The notes beneath the pieces were generated by a model, which worked only from the letters and a program-made list of their open reading frames with translations, made no database searches and had not been told where the DNA came from. A stretch of DNA of 25,890 nucleotides from a virus: the UHGV virus genome UHGV-0135394. One strand, written 5' to 3'. Positions 3,811 to 25,890 of the stretch are shown piece after piece (the first letter of the stretch is position 1; every line of letters begins with the position of its first letter). The translations under genes were made by a program, and so were the position numbers.

Positions 3811-4503
3811 TTAAAACAACGAGCCAAGCAGACCAAGACCAGCACCGATACCAGCACCCCACGGAGTTGATAGCTCGAGAGCACTGGCTATGCCACCACC
3901 CAAAAGCGCACCGGATGCAGCACCACTAACACCCTGCTGCAATGCTGACGGTCGGTTGGCGTTTGCAGCCGCCAGCGCCGCGCTTTGCTGTGAAATCTGA
4001 CTCATGTTGTTGGCATATGTCTGCCCGGCGTTTGCCTGACCTTGCAGAGCACCAAGCCCAACGTTTGCCAGATTCTGGTAGTTGTTCATCTGACCAGACA
4101 GCCACTGCTGACCAAGCGTTGGTGCGATTGTTGCTAACTGATTACCGGTTGCAGTGGAACCCAATCCACCTGTTGCTTCCGCTGACGCCAGACTCTGATA
4201 GCGAGCCTGACCAGCAAGATCTTTGTACTGCTGAGAGTTGTAATACTGGTTAAGTGCCTGACCTTGCCCTTCCAGAGACGATAAGTTCTCGAGGCTGCCG
4301 ACATACTTATCAGCCAGAGGAGTAAACGGCTTCAGGTTGTTCATGATGGTGTTGAACTGCTGATTTTGCAGGTCTGCTGCATACTTCTGAGCTTCTGCTG
4401 CATACTTTGCGCTTTTATCAGAACTGCCACCTTTCCCGCCTTTTTCAGGGCAATAAGGTTCCTCGCCGCGCAGTTTTCTGCCCAGCTTAAATGCATATAA
4501 CAT
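3811..4503 (-). CDS. Ejection protein, P22 gp7-like (230 aa)
   Basis: Translation MLYAFKLGRKLRGEEPYCPEKGGKGG... with Gly/Ala-rich C-terminus ending GLLGSLF closely matches recalled P22 gp7. Confidence 0.88.
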   Translation of the reverse strand: MLYAFKLGRKLRGEEPYCPEKGGKGGSSDKSAKYAAEAQKYAADLQNQQFNTIMNNLKPFTPLADKYVGSLENLSSLEGQGQALNQYYNSQQYKDLAGQARYQSLASAEATGGLGSTATGNQLATIAPTLGQQWLSGQMNNYQNLANVGLGALQGQANAGQTYANNMSQISQQSAALAAANANRPSALQQGVSGAASGALLGGGIASALELSTPWGAGIGAGLGLLGSLF

Positions 4504-19785: not shown

Positions 19786-20072
19786 GACTTAATCTTCCCC
19801 TCCTTCAGCAGTATCACCTGCGTCCTGATCACGCCTTCGAGGTGGTAAAGTCTGGCGTCTTTGTTGTCGATATTATGGGTGCGTCGGTCGATTTCATCGT
19901 GACACGCGCTACAAGCCCATGCGCCGATCAGGTCGTCAGGCTTCATTCCCGTTCCGCAAATTCCAGCCATCCGGTAATGTGCCAGAACTGTAGTTTCAGG
20001 GTTGCCATTGCATACGCCGTAAATACGTACCTGACATTCTCTGCCGCGCGCTTCTTTGCGTAGATTAGCCAT
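19782..20072 (-). CDS. ybcO: YbcO-like nin-region protein, putative Cys-rich nuclease (96 aa)
   Basis: MA.LRK.ARGRECQVRI.GVCNGNPET.VLAH...CSACHDEIDRRTH matches recalled DLP12 YbcO; GGGGAGG SD 9 nt upstream; ATGA overlap with rusA. Confidence 0.8.
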   Translation of the reverse strand: MANLRKEARGRECQVRIYGVCNGNPETTVLAHYRMAGICGTGMKPDDLIGAWACSACHDEIDRRTHNIDNKDARLYHLEGVIRTQVILLKEGKIKS

Positions 20073-20392
20073 TAAGCAGCCTCCCCGGTTACTTTCAGCA
20101 TTCCGTTATCGAGCAGCTTTCTGGTCAGCCACTGTTGACCACGCCCGGTGATTTTTGTGGTGAACGATATCTGTATTCCGTGATTTGTGTTGACCGCTGT
20201 TTCTTTCACGGTGAAATAGGCGCGATCACTTTCGTCTACTCCGTTACAAAGCGAGGCTGGGTATTTCCCGGCCTTCCTGTTATCCGAAATCCTCTGAAAG
20301 CACAGCGGCTGGCTGAGGAGATAAATAATAAACGAGGGGCTGTATGCACAAAGCATCTCCTGTTGAGTTAAGAACGAGCATTGAGATGGCAC
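20072..20392 (-). CDS. Hypothetical; probably only the 3' part is a real (possibly 5'-truncated) nin-region gene
   Basis: C-terminal ~60 codons look coding and the stop is coupled (TAATG) to the ybcO-like start; N-terminal ~45 codons are low-complexity and overlap the divergent plus-strand gene by 49 bp. Confidence 0.3.
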   Translation of the reverse strand: MPSQCSFLTQQEMLCAYSPSFIIYLLSQPLCFQRISDNRKAGKYPASLCNGVDESDRAYFTVKETAVNTNHGIQISFTTKITGRGQQWLTRKLLDNGMLKVTGEAA

Positions 20393-20535
20393 ATAGCCTT
20401 GCTCAAATTGGAGTCAAGTTTGTGCCAATACCAGTAGAAACAGACGAAGAATTTCATACGTTAGCCGCATCCCTTTCACAAAAGCTGGAAATGATGGTGG
20501 CGAAAGCAGAAGCAGATGAGAGAGACCAGGTATGA
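20344..20535 (+). CDS. Small early-operon protein (63 aa), acidic
   Basis: SD GAGGGG 5 nt upstream of ATG; first gene of a plus-strand operon pointing toward int; stop overlaps next start (ATGA). Confidence 0.55.
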   Translation: MHKASPVELRTSIEMAHSLAQIGVKFVPIPVETDEEFHTLAASLSQKLEMMVAKAEADERDQV

Positions 20536-20615
20536 CAACCACGGAATGCATTTTTCTGGCAGCGGGCTTCATATTTTGTGTGCTTATGCTTGCCGACATG
20601 GGACTTGTTCAATGA
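20532..20615 (+). CDS. Candidate 27-aa hydrophobic micro-protein (MTTTECIFLAAGFIFCVLMLADMGLVQ)
   Basis: Found by manual reading; ATGA overlaps at both ends couple it to the genes on either side; single predicted TM helix; below ORF-track cutoff. Confidence 0.35.
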   Translation: MTTTECIFLAAGFIFCVLMLADMGLVQ

Positions 20616-20827
20616 CACCTCAGCAAGAAAACGCCCTTCGCAGCATTGCCCGTCTGGCTAACTCTGAAATCAAAAAAGCCAGACAGCAGTTTCCGGATAA
20701 AAACGTCGATGACATTTGCCGTAGCGTACTGAAGAAGCACCGCGAAACGGTAACGCTGATGGGATTCACACCGACTCATTTAAGCCAGGCGATCGGCATG
20801 TTAAACGGCGTCTTTAAGGAGCGATGA
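20612..20827 (+). CDS. Small early-operon protein (71 aa); start at internal Met of the 103-aa ORF
   Basis: ATG at 20612 is translationally coupled to the preceding micro-ORF; the upstream part of the ORF-track frame overlaps two other genes. Confidence 0.55.
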   Translation: MTPQQENALRSIARLANSEIKKARQQFPDKNVDDICRSVLKKHRETVTLMGFTPTHLSQAIGMLNGVFKER

Positions 20828-20848
20828 ACATGAAGAGCAAAATCATCA

Positions 20849-20873
20849 GGGAGCTACAGGCTCCTTTTTTATT
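20849..20873 (+). terminator. Short GC hairpin plus U6 tract inside the early operon (attenuator or sRNA 3' end candidate)
   Basis: GGAGC-UACAG-GCUCC (20850..20864) followed by UUUUUUAUU (20865..20873). Confidence 0.4.
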
Positions 20874-20925
20874 GTTCGCATTCACCCTCAAGCGTATTAA
20901 CCAACAATTCAGGGATTAATGGAAG

Positions 20926-21147
20926 ATGGCAGACATCATTGATTCAGCATCAGAAATTGAAGAATTACAGCGCAACACAGCAATAAAAATGCGCCGCCTG
21001 AACCACCAGGCTATATCTGCCACTCATTGTTGTGAGTGTGGCGATCCCATAGATGAACGAAGACGCCTGGTCGTTCAGGGTTGTCGGACTTGTGCAAGTT
21101 GCCAGGAGGATCTGGAGCTTATCAGTAAACAGAGAGGTTCGAAGTGA
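20926..21147 (+). CDS. C4 zinc-finger protein, TraR/DksA-like (73 aa)
   Basis: CCECGDPI...(16 residues)...CRTCASC four-cysteine motif near C-terminus; SD-like GGAAG upstream. Confidence 0.6.
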   Translation: MADIIDSASEIEELQRNTAIKMRRLNHQAISATHCCECGDPIDERRRLVVQGCRTCASCQEDLELISKQRGSK

Positions 21148-21560
21148 GCGAAATTAACTCTCAGGCACTGCGTGAGGCGGCAGTAGCAATTGAAACAGTA
21201 GCAACGCCTCAAAAATTGCTGGCATTTCGTATGAAAGTCACACCTCAGGTTGTGCTGGCACTGCTGGATGAACGGGAAAGAAACCAGCAATACATCAAAC
21301 GCCGCGACCAAGAGAACGAGGATATTGCGTTAACGGTAGGGAAGTTGCGCGTTGAGCTTGAGGCAGAAAAACAGCGGGCAAAGGATCTGTTTATGGAAAA
21401 TGCTCGGCTTAAGTCAGGTATAGCCGGTCTGATACACCTCGGTATTCGATATGCAGATGTTGAGGTCATGAGAATTGCTGGAGATGCCCAGCTTTCTACC
21501 CCATGCACTGACAGCATCATAAACAGCATTGCAACAGGCATTCGCATCAAAGGAGAGTGA
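21144..21560 (+). CDS. Ea22-like early-region protein (138 aa), GTG start
   Basis: Motif LLDERERNQQYIKRRDQENEDIALTVGKLRVELE is characteristic of lambdoid Ea22-family proteins; SD AGAGAGG 6 nt upstream; start overlaps previous stop. Confidence 0.7.
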   Translation: MSEINSQALREAAVAIETVATPQKLLAFRMKVTPQVVLALLDERERNQQYIKRRDQENEDIALTVGKLRVELEAEKQRAKDLFMENARLKSGIAGLIHLGIRYADVEVMRIAGDAQLSTPCTDSIINSIATGIRIKGE

Positions 21561-21561
21561 T

Positions 21562-22230
21562 ATGAGCGCTATAACCAAAGAACGTATCAAATTATTCATT
21601 AAAAATCCGCTTGATAACGGACTTACTCGTGGCGAACAAATGGAACTGGCACGAATTGCACTGGCATCACTGGAACGCGAACAGATTCGCCACGAGCATG
21701 CCAAATGGTCTGACTCCACATTTGGCTGCGTTGGCCCCATTGGTCCGCTGAAACATCTCTCAAAAGAGGCACTGGAAGCCGCAGCCGAACCAGACGATCT
21801 TAGCGAGTGGGCTGATATGCAGTTTCTGTTGTGGGATGCACAGCGCCGTGCTGGCATCAGCGATGCTGAAATTACCGCTGCTATGGAAGATAAATTGAAG
21901 ATCAACATGGAGCGCCAGTGGCCTGAGCCAAAAGATGGTGAGCCTCGCTTGCACATTAAAGAACCCGGCAACTATCCGGTAACTCCGGATGGTTGGATAA
22001 GCTGTAGTGAGCGAATGCCAGAAATGGGAGAGCGACAATGCTATGTGTTAGCAGCTGACTTTAAAAACAACTACCCACCAAACATCCCCAACACTCAGGT
22101 CGGCGTATATGGCGACTGGTTTAATGATGGCAATCCAACTTGGGATGACGGTGATGGCGAAGACCTGTATCTCAAAGAGGTAACCCACTGGATGCCTCTA
22201 CCAGAACCGCCTCGATTAAAGGAGCTATAA
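21562..22230 (+). CDS. DUF551-type early-region protein (222 aa); start at internal ATG with SD
   Basis: C-terminal ...VTHWMPLPEPP signature of DUF551 domains common in lambdoid ea regions; SD AGGAGA at 21551..21556. Confidence 0.7.
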   Translation: MSAITKERIKLFIKNPLDNGLTRGEQMELARIALASLEREQIRHEHAKWSDSTFGCVGPIGPLKHLSKEALEAAAEPDDLSEWADMQFLLWDAQRRAGISDAEITAAMEDKLKINMERQWPEPKDGEPRLHIKEPGNYPVTPDGWISCSERMPEMGERQCYVLAADFKNNYPPNIPNTQVGVYGDWFNDGNPTWDDGDGEDLYLKEVTHWMPLPEPPRLKEL

Positions 22231-22344
22231 TAGTGAACTATTATATCTATTTGTATTAAAAGAGTTTTTATAAAATAAATCTTCCAAAGCATGTAAAAAC
22301 ACTGTTAATCTTAACGTGTGTGAAACGTGAAGAGAGGTGTTGAA

Positions 22345-22626
22345 ATGAGCATTCATGATTTGTGTGAAGATCAAGAGCAATGGGCTATGCAGACCCTTAT
22401 GGGATCAGGAGTTCTTGCAAGGTGCAGAATCCATAACGATGTAATTTTAGACAGCGGAAATGATGCTTCTTCTGCTTATAAATTAGGAACTTACCTATAT
22501 CAAAAAGATAATAGCTGCAACTTATTCAATACTCTTACTGAAGCCCGCGACGCAATAAAGGATGCATATGAATCGTATTGTGGGATTGATGATTGCCCAC
22601 AATGCTCAAAATACATTGACGATTAA
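22345..22626 (+). CDS. Hypothetical Cys-containing moron protein (93 aa) in AT-rich island
   Basis: SD AGAGAGG 7 nt upstream of ATG 22345; region 22230..22900 is visibly AT-rich relative to flanks; followed by hairpin terminator(s). Confidence 0.55.
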   Translation: MSIHDLCEDQEQWAMQTLMGSGVLARCRIHNDVILDSGNDASSAYKLGTYLYQKDNSCNLFNTLTEARDAIKDAYESYCGIDDCPQCSKYIDD

Positions 22627-22646
22627 TAATATGAACAAGTAACTAT

Positions 22647-22912: not shown

Positions 22913-23104
22913 ATGACCGATACCAGCCTGATTCCTGAGAAAGAAGTGATGAACAAGCTCGGTGTTTCATCACGTCAGACAATCTGGAACTATACCAAAC
23001 GGCACGGATTTCCGAAGCCAGTCAGAACCCACCCCAAATCATACCTTCGTGAAGCTGTTGAAGGGTGGATTCTTAACGGTGGCGTTAATCAGAAATGCTC
23101 CTGA
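22913..23104 (+). CDS. AlpA/excisionase-family HTH protein (63 aa)
   Basis: Short HTH-like protein adjacent to a P4-type integrase; 3' end overlaps the integrase 3' end by 20 bp on the opposite strand. Confidence 0.7.
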   Translation: MTDTSLIPEKEVMNKLGVSSRQTIWNYTKRHGFPKPVRTHPKSYLREAVEGWILNGGVNQKCS

Positions 23105-24263
23105 TGTGCCAGAACAATTTATCAGCGTGAAGCTCATACGCTTTGCGCTGAGCCTCTATCCAGTCGTGTTTATTGTATACGGACATTATCCCGCCAAGTT
23201 CATGACCGAGCATTCGCTCAGTAACATGAGGCTCGACATTCATCTCGGACAGACGTGTAACAAGCGTTCTTCTGAAATCATGTGTTCGCCAGTAACCCAG
23301 ATCCATCCCTCCCCTTATTCGATTTACGAATCGGTTGGCTGCAGCGATGCTGATCGGTTTGTTTATGTCTTCTCCAGGGAAAAGAACATCATTGTACGTT
23401 GTCATGGCCTTTTCGAGGAAAGGCTTAATTTGTTCGAAGATTGGACGGCGGATAACATTACCCATCTTGCTATGCTCTTTCGGTACGGTCCATACGTTGT
23501 CCAGCAGGTCAAACTCTGTCTTTGTTGCCAGCCTAAGCTCTGAGAGCCTCGCCCCCCACAGCATAAGCATCTGATGAAGGAGCTTATTTGACGTAGACGC
23601 ACGGCTTCTTTCAATAGCAAGCCAAATCTTAGCCAGTTCGTGATACGACAGTACCCGATCCCCTACCTCAGCGCGGGAGCCGAAGTCCCTTGGTTGGATG
23701 CTCATAATTGCGCAACTATCTATCAACTGACGCCGCATGCACCAACTTATTGCTGATCTTAGTTGACTTAGCACCTGCCTTGCTCGGCGTGGATTATCTC
23801 TTTCTTCTTCGGTAAGCAGGTCAACCCATTGCTTAACCGTGATAGAAGATGCCGGACGATTAGGAAAGGCGTCATGCATGCGCTTCATAACCGTTGATCG
23901 GTAAAGTGCCTGGGTCTTTTCTCTGAGAGTTGTAGAGACGTAGTTGTCGAACCAGTAGTCGAGACACTGGGCGACCGTCATGGAGTTCTCCACCTTCTCT
24001 TCAAAATAAGTGCGTGGATCCGTTCCTGAGAAATAGAGCTTTCGCAAGTCAGCAGTGATCTGTCTGGCATCCTTCAAAGACAGGGATGGGTATCGACCAA
24101 GCCCAAGTCGATTAGGCTTGCCATGCCAGCGATAGCGGTACTGGAACTGGATGACCCCCTTCGGTGAAATTCGTACGCTGAGGCCATCGGCATCAGCCAC
24201 TTCTTGTGGGCCAGAATATGGTTTACCATAAATAGTACGCAGTTTTGTGTCGCTTATAGCCAT
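23085..24263 (-). CDS. int: Tyrosine site-specific integrase, P4-type with N-terminal arm-binding domain (392 aa)
   Basis: N-terminal DUF4102-like domain (...GLSVRISPKGVIQFQYRYRWHGKPNRLGLGRYPSLSLKDAR); catalytic signature HDFRRT ... LGHELGG ... SVY near C-terminus; located at the prophage-host junction. Confidence 0.92.
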   Translation of the reverse strand: MAISDTKLRTIYGKPYSGPQEVADADGLSVRISPKGVIQFQYRYRWHGKPNRLGLGRYPSLSLKDARQITADLRKLYFSGTDPRTYFEEKVENSMTVAQCLDYWFDNYVSTTLREKTQALYRSTVMKRMHDAFPNRPASSITVKQWVDLLTEEERDNPRRARQVLSQLRSAISWCMRRQLIDSCAIMSIQPRDFGSRAEVGDRVLSYHELAKIWLAIERSRASTSNKLLHQMLMLWGARLSELRLATKTEFDLLDNVWTVPKEHSKMGNVIRRPIFEQIKPFLEKAMTTYNDVLFPGEDINKPISIAAANRFVNRIRGGMDLGYWRTHDFRRTLVTRLSEMNVEPHVTERMLGHELGGIMSVYNKHDWIEAQRKAYELHADKLFWHIRSISD

Positions 24264-24273
24264 AAATAATATT

Positions 24274-24315
24274 TGGTACGCTCAGAAATAATGGTTTGGT
24301 ACACATCTGGTACAC
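24274..24315. repeat. Three direct copies of TGGTAC(G/A)C in the int-sbcB intergenic region
   Basis: Copies at 24274..24281, 24297..24304 and 24308..24315 (spacing 23 and 11 bp), immediately upstream of the int start; candidate arm-type or regulatory binding sites. Confidence 0.45.
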
Positions 24316-24444
24316 AATATCACATGGACAACAGCGCACAGTAAACAACTATATTTGACGTTCGTAGACATACTCAGGTGAAAAAATGGTTGTTTTTCGA
24401 GTCATAACAGACAGTTAATTAACTACAGTGGACAATGCTAGACA

Positions 24445-25890
24445 ATGACAGGCACAGATAAACAACCTACCTTCCTCTTTCACGATTACGAAACCTTTGG
24501 CACGCACCCCGCGTTAGATCGCCCTGCACAGTTCGCAGCCATTCGCACCGATGACGAATTCAATGTCATCGGCGAACCCGAAGTCTTTTACTGCAAGCCC
24601 GCGGATGACTATTTACCCCAGCCTGGAGCAGTATTAATTACCGGTATTACCCCGCAGGAGGCACGAGCGAAAGGAGAAAACGAAGCCGCGTTTGCCGCCC
24701 GTATTCACTCGCTTTTTACCGTACCGAAGACCTGTATTCTGGGCTACAACAATGTGCGTTTCGACGACGAAGTCACACGCAACGTTTTTTATCGTAATTT
24801 CTACGATCCTTACGCCTGGAGCTGGCAGCATGATAACTCGCGCTGGGATTTACTGGATGTTATGCGTGCCTGTTATGCCCTGCGCCCGGAAGGAATAAAT
24901 TGGCCTGAAAATGATGACGGTCTACCGAGCTTTCGCCTTGAGCATTTAACCAAAGCGAATGGTATTGAACATAGCAACGCCCACGATGCGATGGCTGATG
25001 TGTACGCCACTATTGCGATGGCAAAACTGGTAAAAACGCGTCAGCCACGCCTGTTTGATTATCTCTTTACCCATCGTAATAAACACAAACTAATGGCGTT
25101 GATTGATGTTCCTCAGATGAAACCCCTGGTTCACGTTTCCGGAATGTTTGGGGCATGGCGCGGCAATACAAGCTGGGTGGCACCGCTGGCGTGGCATCCT
25201 GAAAATCGCAATGCCGTAATTATGGTGGATTTGGCAGGAGACATTTCGCCATTACTGGAGCTGGATAGCGACACATTGCGCGAGCGTTTATATACCGCAA
25301 AAGCCGATCTTGGCGATAACGCCGCCGTTCCGGTTAAGCTGGTACATATCAATAAATGTCCGGTACTGGCCCAGGCGAATACGCTACGCCCGGAAGATGC
25401 CGACCGACTGGGAATTAATCGTCAGCATTGCCTCGATAACCTAAAAATTCTGCGTGAAAATCCGCAAGTGCGTGAAAAAGTGGTAGCGATATTCGTGGAA
25501 GCCGAACCGTTTACACCTTCAGATAATGTGGATGCACAGCTTTATAACGGCTTTTTCAGTGACGCCGATCGTGCAGCAATGAAAATTGTGCTGGAAACCG
25601 AGCCGCGTAATTTACCGGCACTGGATATCACTTTTGTTGATAAACGAATTGAAAAGCTGTTGTTCAATTATCGGGCGCGCAACTTCCCGGGGACGCTGGA
25701 TTATGCCGAGCAGCAACGCTGGCTGGAGCACCGCCGCCAGGTCTTCACGCCAGAGTTTTTACAAGGCTATGCAGAAGAGATTCAGATGCTGGCGCAGCAG
25801 TATGCCGACGATAAAGAAAAAGTGGCGCTGTTAAAAGCGCTTTGGCAGTACGCGGACAAAAGCAGCACTGGCAGAAATGGCCAGCGGCGA
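24445..25890 (+). CDS. sbcB: Exodeoxyribonuclease I (3'-to-5' ssDNA exonuclease), 3'-partial at window end
   Basis: Translation from ATG 24445 (MTGTDKQPTFLFHDYETFGTHPALDRPAQFAAIRTD...) is near-identical to enterobacterial ExoI over about 470 residues; ORF runs to the window end without a stop. Confidence 0.93.
   Translation, partial: MTGTDKQPTFLFHDYETFGTHPALDRPAQFAAIRTDDEFNVIGEPEVFYCKPADDYLPQPGAVLITGITPQEARAKGENEAAFAARIHSLFTVPKTCILGYNNVRFDDEVTRNVFYRNFYDPYAWSWQHDNSRWDLLDVMRACYALRPEGINWPENDDGLPSFRLEHLTKANGIEHSNAHDAMADVYATIAMAKLVKTRQPRLFDYLFTHRNKHKLMALIDVPQMKPLVHVSGMFGAWRGNTSWVAPLAWHPENRNAVIMVDLAGDISPLLELDSDTLRERLYTAKADLGDNAAVPVKLVHINKCPVLAQANTLRPEDADRLGINRQHCLDNLKILRENPQVREKVVAIFVEAEPFTPSDNVDAQLYNGFFSDADRAAMKIVLETEPRNLPALDITFVDKRIEKLLFNYRARNFPGTLDYAEQQRWLEHRRQVFTPEFLQGYAEEIQMLAQQYADDKEKVALLKALWQYADKSSTGRNGQRR

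Follow-up and report, generated by a model that had tools for sequence, protein, structure and literature searches.

At the right-hand end of the stretch of DNA analysed here, a virus genome sequence of 25,890 nucleotides (UHGV virus genome UHGV-0135394) that we call the window, a tyrosine integrase gene (int) is followed by a short non-coding interval and then by sbcB, the gene encoding the host nuclease ExoI, whose reading frame is still open at the edge of the window (Table 1). The domain architecture of the integrase, as recognized by Pfam, consists of an Arm-DNA-bind_3 domain (PF13356, residues 4-85, E 8e-18) and a Phage_integrase catalytic domain (PF00589, residues 204-366, E 1e-16), and the DNA of the int region is 98.6-98.9% identical to that of phages 1717, HK140, mEp234, 2851, and Sf101. 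The assembly collection lists 1,895 blocks with an identical integrase protein, and in all ten loci displayed from among these blocks int lies 181 bp from a 474-aa ExoI gene.

Table 1. Features at the int-sbcB end of the window, by position.
Feature	Coordinates	Strand	Remarks
AlpA-type excisionase-like gene, 63 aa	22913..23104	+	Convergent with int; overlaps the int 3' end
Tyrosine integrase gene int, 392 aa	23085..24263	-	Phage 2851/HK140/Sf101 type; points away from att
Phage P arm, 181 bp	24264..24444	.	Spans int start to sbcB ATG
Arm-type direct repeats, three copies	TTTGGTACGC 24272-24281; TTTGGTACAC 24295-24304; TCTGGTACAC 24306-24315	+	Detected by repeat search
Phage-supplied sbcB codons 1-11	24445..24477	+	MTGTDKQPTFL, in place of native MMNDGKQQSTFL
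att core, 13 bp, TTTCACGATTACG	24478..24490	+	Identical in all four aligned sequences
Chromosomal sbcB body, ExoI codons 16-470	24491..25856	+	98-100% identical to E. coli sbcB
tsuB (yeeD) fragment, 34 bases	25857..25890	+	About codons 20-31, sense; fused to sbcB codon 470/471

The small gene that converges on int matches the PHROG family phrog_66, described as 'excisionase and transcriptional regulator' (E 1.9e-8), and its equivalent appears as an AlpA family regulator in the records of HK140, Sf101, and other phages; no Pfam match was found for it at 1e-3. In this phage family, int does not share a strand with xis and the early-left genes but lies on the other one (22913-24444 in the window), so leftward early transcripts would cross int in antisense and then sbcB in sense unless they were terminated. 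No terminator-like site was found on scanning 24150-24560.

An earlier note, made from the letters of the window, had the element ending within 181 bp of the sbcB start codon, with no tRNA in between. The distance is exactly that, and neither a tRNA nor a tmRNA was found by ARAGORN in the entire window; the element does not end before the start of sbcB, however, but inside the gene. This can be seen in a four-way alignment of the window, the attP of phage HK140, the junction of the Stx2c phage 1717, and the empty site of the prophage-free E. coli EJN001, where a single block of 13 bp, located at sbcB codons 12-16, is shared by all, in agreement with the suggestion of the same note that the att core may lie within the first 30 or so codons of the gene. 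This core takes in codons 12-15 and extends one base into codon 16, encodes F-H-D-Y-(E), which belongs to the Exo I motif of ExoI, and is 100% identical in the window both to HK140 attP and to the EJN001 empty site.

On the two sides of the core, the resemblance of the window switches from one partner to the other. To the left, the 181-bp P arm is identical to that of the free phage HK140 at 179 of 181 positions (98.9%), versus 36.4% identity to the region upstream of the empty site, and codons 1-11 agree with HK140 attP at 32 of 33 bases (97.0%) and with the empty site at 20 of 33 (60.6%). The arm would thus supply the N-terminal codons of sbcB as well as its upstream DNA, as had been proposed. 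To the right, the 110 bases from 24491 to 24600 are 98.2% identical to the EJN001 empty site and 31.5% identical to the P' arm of HK140, which also upholds the earlier remark that the first codons of this sbcB are more diverged than the rest. The last differences before the core are still of the phage type (24474, 24475, and 24477, reading TTCCTC versus native TTTTTG) and base 24491 is already chromosomal, which confines the strand exchange to the 13 bp. It is thus almost certain, from these alignments, that the crossover took place inside the core, with everything to its left being phage DNA and everything to its right chromosomal DNA. Since the core occurs only once in the window, the other end of the prophage must lie beyond position 1.

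The same block is known from other sources. The HK140 record annotates a putative attP at this site, the record of phage 1717 gives the 13 bp as the insertion duplication, and the attP reported for Shigella phage Sf101 and for phage 2851 is the reverse complement of the core, CGTAATCGTGAAA (PMC4159516). The integration site is, in this respect, already described, the same 13-bp att having been published for those two phages. A region that we take to include the catalytic residues Asp15 and Glu17 of the DEDDh site of ExoI is encoded at the core (F-H-D-Y-E, K-12 codons 13-17), and this would explain why the core is a stable target.

A BLAST search with positions 24100-24700 against 5,426 complete E. 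coli genomes returned the full int-sbcB junction in 582 of them, and in the remainder the match begins only at about 24461-24478. Free-phage genomes follow the window up to 24490 and no further, and a scan of IMG/VR for the attP form yielded three contigs. One entry of the E. coli collection, NZ_CP063485.1 (39,096 bp), ends at about the att core, and its positions 38997-39096 match only 24390-24489 of the window; it resembles a circular phage genome, with attP unrecombined, that the assembly has kept as a replicon of its own. These searches also bear on the most conservative reading of the locus, according to which the unusual N-terminus would be ordinary allelic variation of sbcB and the prophage would end in intergenic DNA. 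The hybrid 5' end is present in 580 of the 5,426 complete genomes, and in none of the 5,426 was it found apart from a prophage junction, prophage-free relatives with the same 5' end being the case that was looked for. The 181 bp and codons 1-11 are, moreover, 97-99% identical to HK140 attP and run into P' in the free phage. We have rejected ordinary allelic variation on these grounds and consider the chance that it is correct to be negligible.

The reciprocal junction can be read in E. coli Z30, which carries a P22-like prophage with the same integrase between dacD and sbcB. At the far end of this prophage, the order is dacD, the native sbcB upstream region, MMNDGKQQSTFLFHDY followed by AQHP and a stop codon, and then the P' arm; in terms of the junction itself, the native upstream region leads into ATGATGAATGACGGTAAGCAACAATCTACCTTTTTG, the core, and phage P' DNA. 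The displaced native 5' end therefore survives in Z30 as a 20-codon stub, MMNDGKQQSTFLFHDYAQHP-stop.

Such an arrangement can be accounted for by the following course of events. The tyrosine integrase would pair the 13-bp core of attP with the identical 13 bp in codons 12-16 of sbcB. The P arm of attP holds its own diverged version of the beginning of sbcB, made up of an ATG, ten more in-frame codons, and an upstream region. Integration would cut off the native promoter and the first 12 codons, which would be left at the far end of the prophage with a stop four codons on, and it would at once rebuild a full-length gene, encoding a 474-aa ExoI with a phage-derived N-terminus. With high confidence, then, we interpret the window as containing the int-proximal junction of a lambdoid (P22-like) prophage of the 2851 att type, integrated inside the 5' end of sbcB and rebuilding a hybrid ExoI.

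The hybrid gene starts at the ATG at 24445, which is in frame with the core and opens the hybrid ORF; it is the only possible start, since two codons before it the frame is closed by a TAG. Its product begins with MTGTDKQPTFLF, versus MMNDGKQQSTFLF at empty sites. Over the N-terminal stretch, the window reads MTGTDKQPTFLFHDYETFG, EJN001 reads MMNDGKQQSTFLFHDYETFG, and the solved K-12 ExoI chains read KQQSTFLFHDYETFG, so that the K-12 N-terminus given in the earlier note was correct. Downstream, residues 5-470 align with the chains of PDB entries 1fxx and 4jrp at about 98% identity, and the Pfam domains RNase_T (PF00929, E 4e-31) and Exonuc_X-T_C (PF08411, E 2e-103) are both recognized. In all ten sampled genomes with the identical integrase, the gene encodes a 474-aa ExoI that starts with MTD(T/A)DKQPTFLF and ends with WQYAEEIV, and PGAP and other gene callers report an intact 474-aa sbcB product from the phage ATG in the related lysogens examined. 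When the window is compared with these ten genomes, the P arm differs from it at two to five positions in each, and two bases are private to the window: a C at 24403, in the P arm, and a G at 24452, through which the hybrid ExoI has Gly in place of Asp at residue 3 (D3G).

The two versions of the beginning of the gene differ in an informative manner. From the start codon to the core, the phage copy reads ATG ACA GGC ACA GAT AAA CAA, then a gap of one codon, then CCT ACC TTC CTC, and the native copy reads ATG ATG AAT GAC GGT AAG CAA CAA TCT ACC TTT TTG. Between K6 and L11, four of the base changes are synonymous and a single one alters the residue (S to P), and one whole codon is deleted; this predominance of synonymous differences together with a codon-sized deletion argues for coding constraint and would fit selection acting on the peptide over DNA identity.

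Tyrosine recombinases recognize core-type sites placed in inverted orientation on either side of the overlap region, and the likeness between arm and gene might be due solely to the need of the integrase for extended homology or for such core-type sites, the restoration of the frame being then incidental. Agreeing with this, the likeness peaks beside the core, where CTACCTT..T.TTTCACGATTACG is common to attP and attB. However, it extends as far as the ATG, 33 bp from the core and farther than a core site normally reaches; the mismatches are at wobble positions and in a 3-bp indel, which is the pattern of coding constraint and not of DNA binding; and in divergent relatives an in-frame start codon (ATG, GTG, or TTG) is kept at the same distance. 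An explanation by integrase requirements alone is, accordingly, very unlikely in our view.

Lying between int and the sbcB ATG, the P arm must carry both a promoter for int on the minus strand and the promoter and RBS that would now serve sbcB on the plus strand. Signals of this kind are inconspicuous there. A consensus scan of 24150-24560 found no promoter, and a sigma-70 position-weight scan of both strands over 24230-24470 gave nothing above shuffled sequence, with best scores of 9.2 on the plus strand and 8.5 on the minus strand and a shuffled median of 8.6. The Shine-Dalgarno sequence of hybrid sbcB is weak (GGA, about 15 nt upstream), and the native gene is similar in that respect. What the arm does contain is a set of direct repeats with the consensus TTTGGTACRC, the first of which lies 9 bp from the start codon of int. 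Two further copies are located in the P' arm of HK140 attP and two at the far junction of the Z30 prophage, after the stub, and the motif is conserved in the Buttiauxella remnant described below. These repeats are presumed to be sites for the N-terminal arm domain of the integrase. By analogy with P4-type systems, the three copies beside the int start would bind Int and probably autoregulate int.

The scarcity of recognizable signals lends some weight to the possibility that integration inactivates sbcB or strongly down-regulates it, leaving the frame open behind an inadequate arm promoter and the lysogens poor in ExoI (xonA-like). The 181-bp arm has no consensus promoter or strong RBS, int is divergent and thus unable to drive sbcB, and the STEC typing literature terms occupied sbcB sites 'disrupted', the reading frame not being addressed there (PMC8309913). 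Set against this, the region upstream of native sbcB is equally poor in consensus signals, the full 474-aa ORF is retained in ten of ten sampled lysogens with an identical Int, the mostly synonymous changes and codon-sized indel before the core imply selection on the protein, and intact sbcB genes with a phage-type 5' end are found behind decayed integrases in Mixta, Buttiauxella, and Winslowiella. We regard inactivation or strong down-regulation of sbcB in lysogens as improbable. Expression of hybrid sbcB from the phage arm is, by the same comparisons, probable, and we infer that the promoter and RBS of the 181-bp arm would be sufficient for it.

The decayed loci came to light in a scan, with one genome per species, for DNA encoding KQPTFLFHDYE, which recovered eight loci, seven of them from outside E. 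coli. Integrase fragments and remnants of the P arm immediately precede an sbcB gene of full length in Buttiauxella sp. B2, Mixta theicola, Mixta sp. Q2659, and Winslowiella arboricola, the decayed fragments in these genera showing about 70-75% amino acid identity over most of them, and Mixta tenebrionis has a mere trace of the 5' end of the integrase at this place. The N-termini of the sbcB products behind these remnants are of the phage type (xxxxKQPTFLF), and in Buttiauxella the arm repeats are still intact. No integrase remnant was found at the sbcB locus of a Yersinia MAG and an Enterobacteriaceae MAG. The seven loci had been considered as a possible donor of the phage-borne 5' piece, a candidate that was rejected: five of them carry remnants of an integrase of the same family and are, for this reason, not independent 'native' alleles of sbcB. 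The presence of remnants before an intact sbcB means instead that phage-derived 5' ends persisted after prophage loss. This constitutes indirect evidence that the persisting 5' ends drive sbcB expression, and it suggests that such ends may become fixed after the prophage has decayed.

A different question is whether the exchange of the 5' end matters to host or phage. The phage-borne 5' end could be other than neutral, through an altered level of ExoI, through coupling to the state of the prophage by Int or Xis bound at the arm, or, after induction, through early-left transcripts that run on across int into sbcB, a suggestion that we make tentatively and consider unlikely. If it were true, the effect could favour phages whose recombination needs the 3' single-strand ends that ExoI destroys; recombination systems of this class (Erf/Abc, RecT, and Rad52-like) are present in related prophages.

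The opposite end of the gene in the window is abnormal as well, in a way that is separate from the att junction. The last four codons of sbcB and its stop are replaced by the tsuB fragment, and the frame ends at the edge of the window as ...WQYADKSSTGRNGQRR, without a stop, instead of ...WQYAEEIV-stop. In the usual arrangement, tsuB converges on sbcB from a position about 200 bp downstream; in 3,361 genomes, the match of the 34 bases to tsuB is on the opposite strand, some 190-225 bp beyond the breakpoint in sbcB. The sbcB-tsuB junction is absent from the 5,426 complete E. coli genomes, none of which matches past base 257 of the query, and from the ten genomes with an identical integrase, and its 31-mer is absent from IMG/VR and the JGI metagenomes. 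Either an inversion of roughly 225 bp or a chimera made by the assembly at the edge of the window would fit these observations. Because of this abnormal 3' end, the copy in the window may not encode a normal ExoI, for reasons unrelated to att. Some lysogens, for their part, lack tsuA-tsuB (yeeE-yeeD), and about 73 bp separate plaP from the end of sbcB there; this spacing was seen at the Z30 locus (L005, 2586-2660) and at two further loci (L020 and L025, about 4321-4395). Taken together with the altered end of the window, it is a hint that rearrangements may arise readily at the boundary between sbcB and tsuB.

The prophage in the window is also incomplete. It is colinear with that of Z30, except that about 15 kb of the latter are replaced by 2.4 kb, and it is without the immunity, replication, and recombination block (20072-22640). 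The 2.4-kb segment encodes only DksA-like zinc-finger, Ea22, dATP/dGTP pyrophosphohydrolase-DUF551, and ea8.5-like proteins, and an ORF on the minus strand (20072-20392) joins an unrelated N-terminal part to the last 50 residues of the Ant antirepressor, a chimeric ORF for which a look-up returned no other record. On this gene content, the window prophage is probably a deletion derivative and defective.

Regarding its relationship to known systems, the window shares int, the 13-bp core, the P arm, and the sbcB target with the 2851-type att/int module, which is found in the Stx2c phages 2851 and 1717 and in Sf101, HK140, HK544, and mEp234; for HK544 and mEp234, the site is entered in GenBank as 'attP type 2851'. 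It differs in its cargo, the virion genes being P22-like and the window containing no stx. The integrase has the same domain architecture as the P4-type integrases (Arm-DNA-bind_3/DUF4102), with which the locus also shares an int gene that adjoins att and is transcribed away from it, and, on the stretch from the start of int to the core, direct repeats of the presumed arm type. Whereas the P4-type enzymes target the 3' end of tRNA genes, the target here is a protein-coding gene. Integration into a coding gene has a parallel in icd, where phage 21 and e14 have a core inside the gene and bring a diverged copy of the displaced end, giving rise to a full-length hybrid. In icd, it is the 3' end that is replaced, so the host promoter and start codon are retained. 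In sbcB, it is the 5' end, which means that promoter, leader, start codon, and N-terminus would all be phage DNA and that regulation would pass to the phage. No new kind of biology is added by the sbcB junction.

The locus is of practical use. sbcB is one of the four loci routinely employed for typing Stx prophages in O157; 26.9% of 346 strains had the site occupied, and Stx2c phages show a preference for it (PMC8309913; PMC3519850). For sbcB prophages, work on O145:H28 uses a 12-bp att (bioRxiv 10.1101/2024.03.06.583675). In the literature searched, which did not extend to the primary paper on phage 2851 (Strauch et al. 2008), we found no explicit statement that the frame, the start, or the upstream region of sbcB is supplied by the phage. 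An occupied sbcB is often called 'disrupted', and what the present comparison reveals is a gene rebuilt with a phage-made 5' end. This is relevant to the reading of insertion-site PCR results and of recombination phenotypes of lysogens and, as far as annotation is concerned, it means that the start of the hybrid sbcB is correct and not miscalled. About one in ten sequenced E. coli strains would encode, if not also produce, an ExoI that owes its promoter, leader, and first 11 residues to a phage. The remnants in Mixta, Buttiauxella, and Winslowiella suggest, furthermore, that such phages may leave a core host gene with a 5' end that is altered for good.
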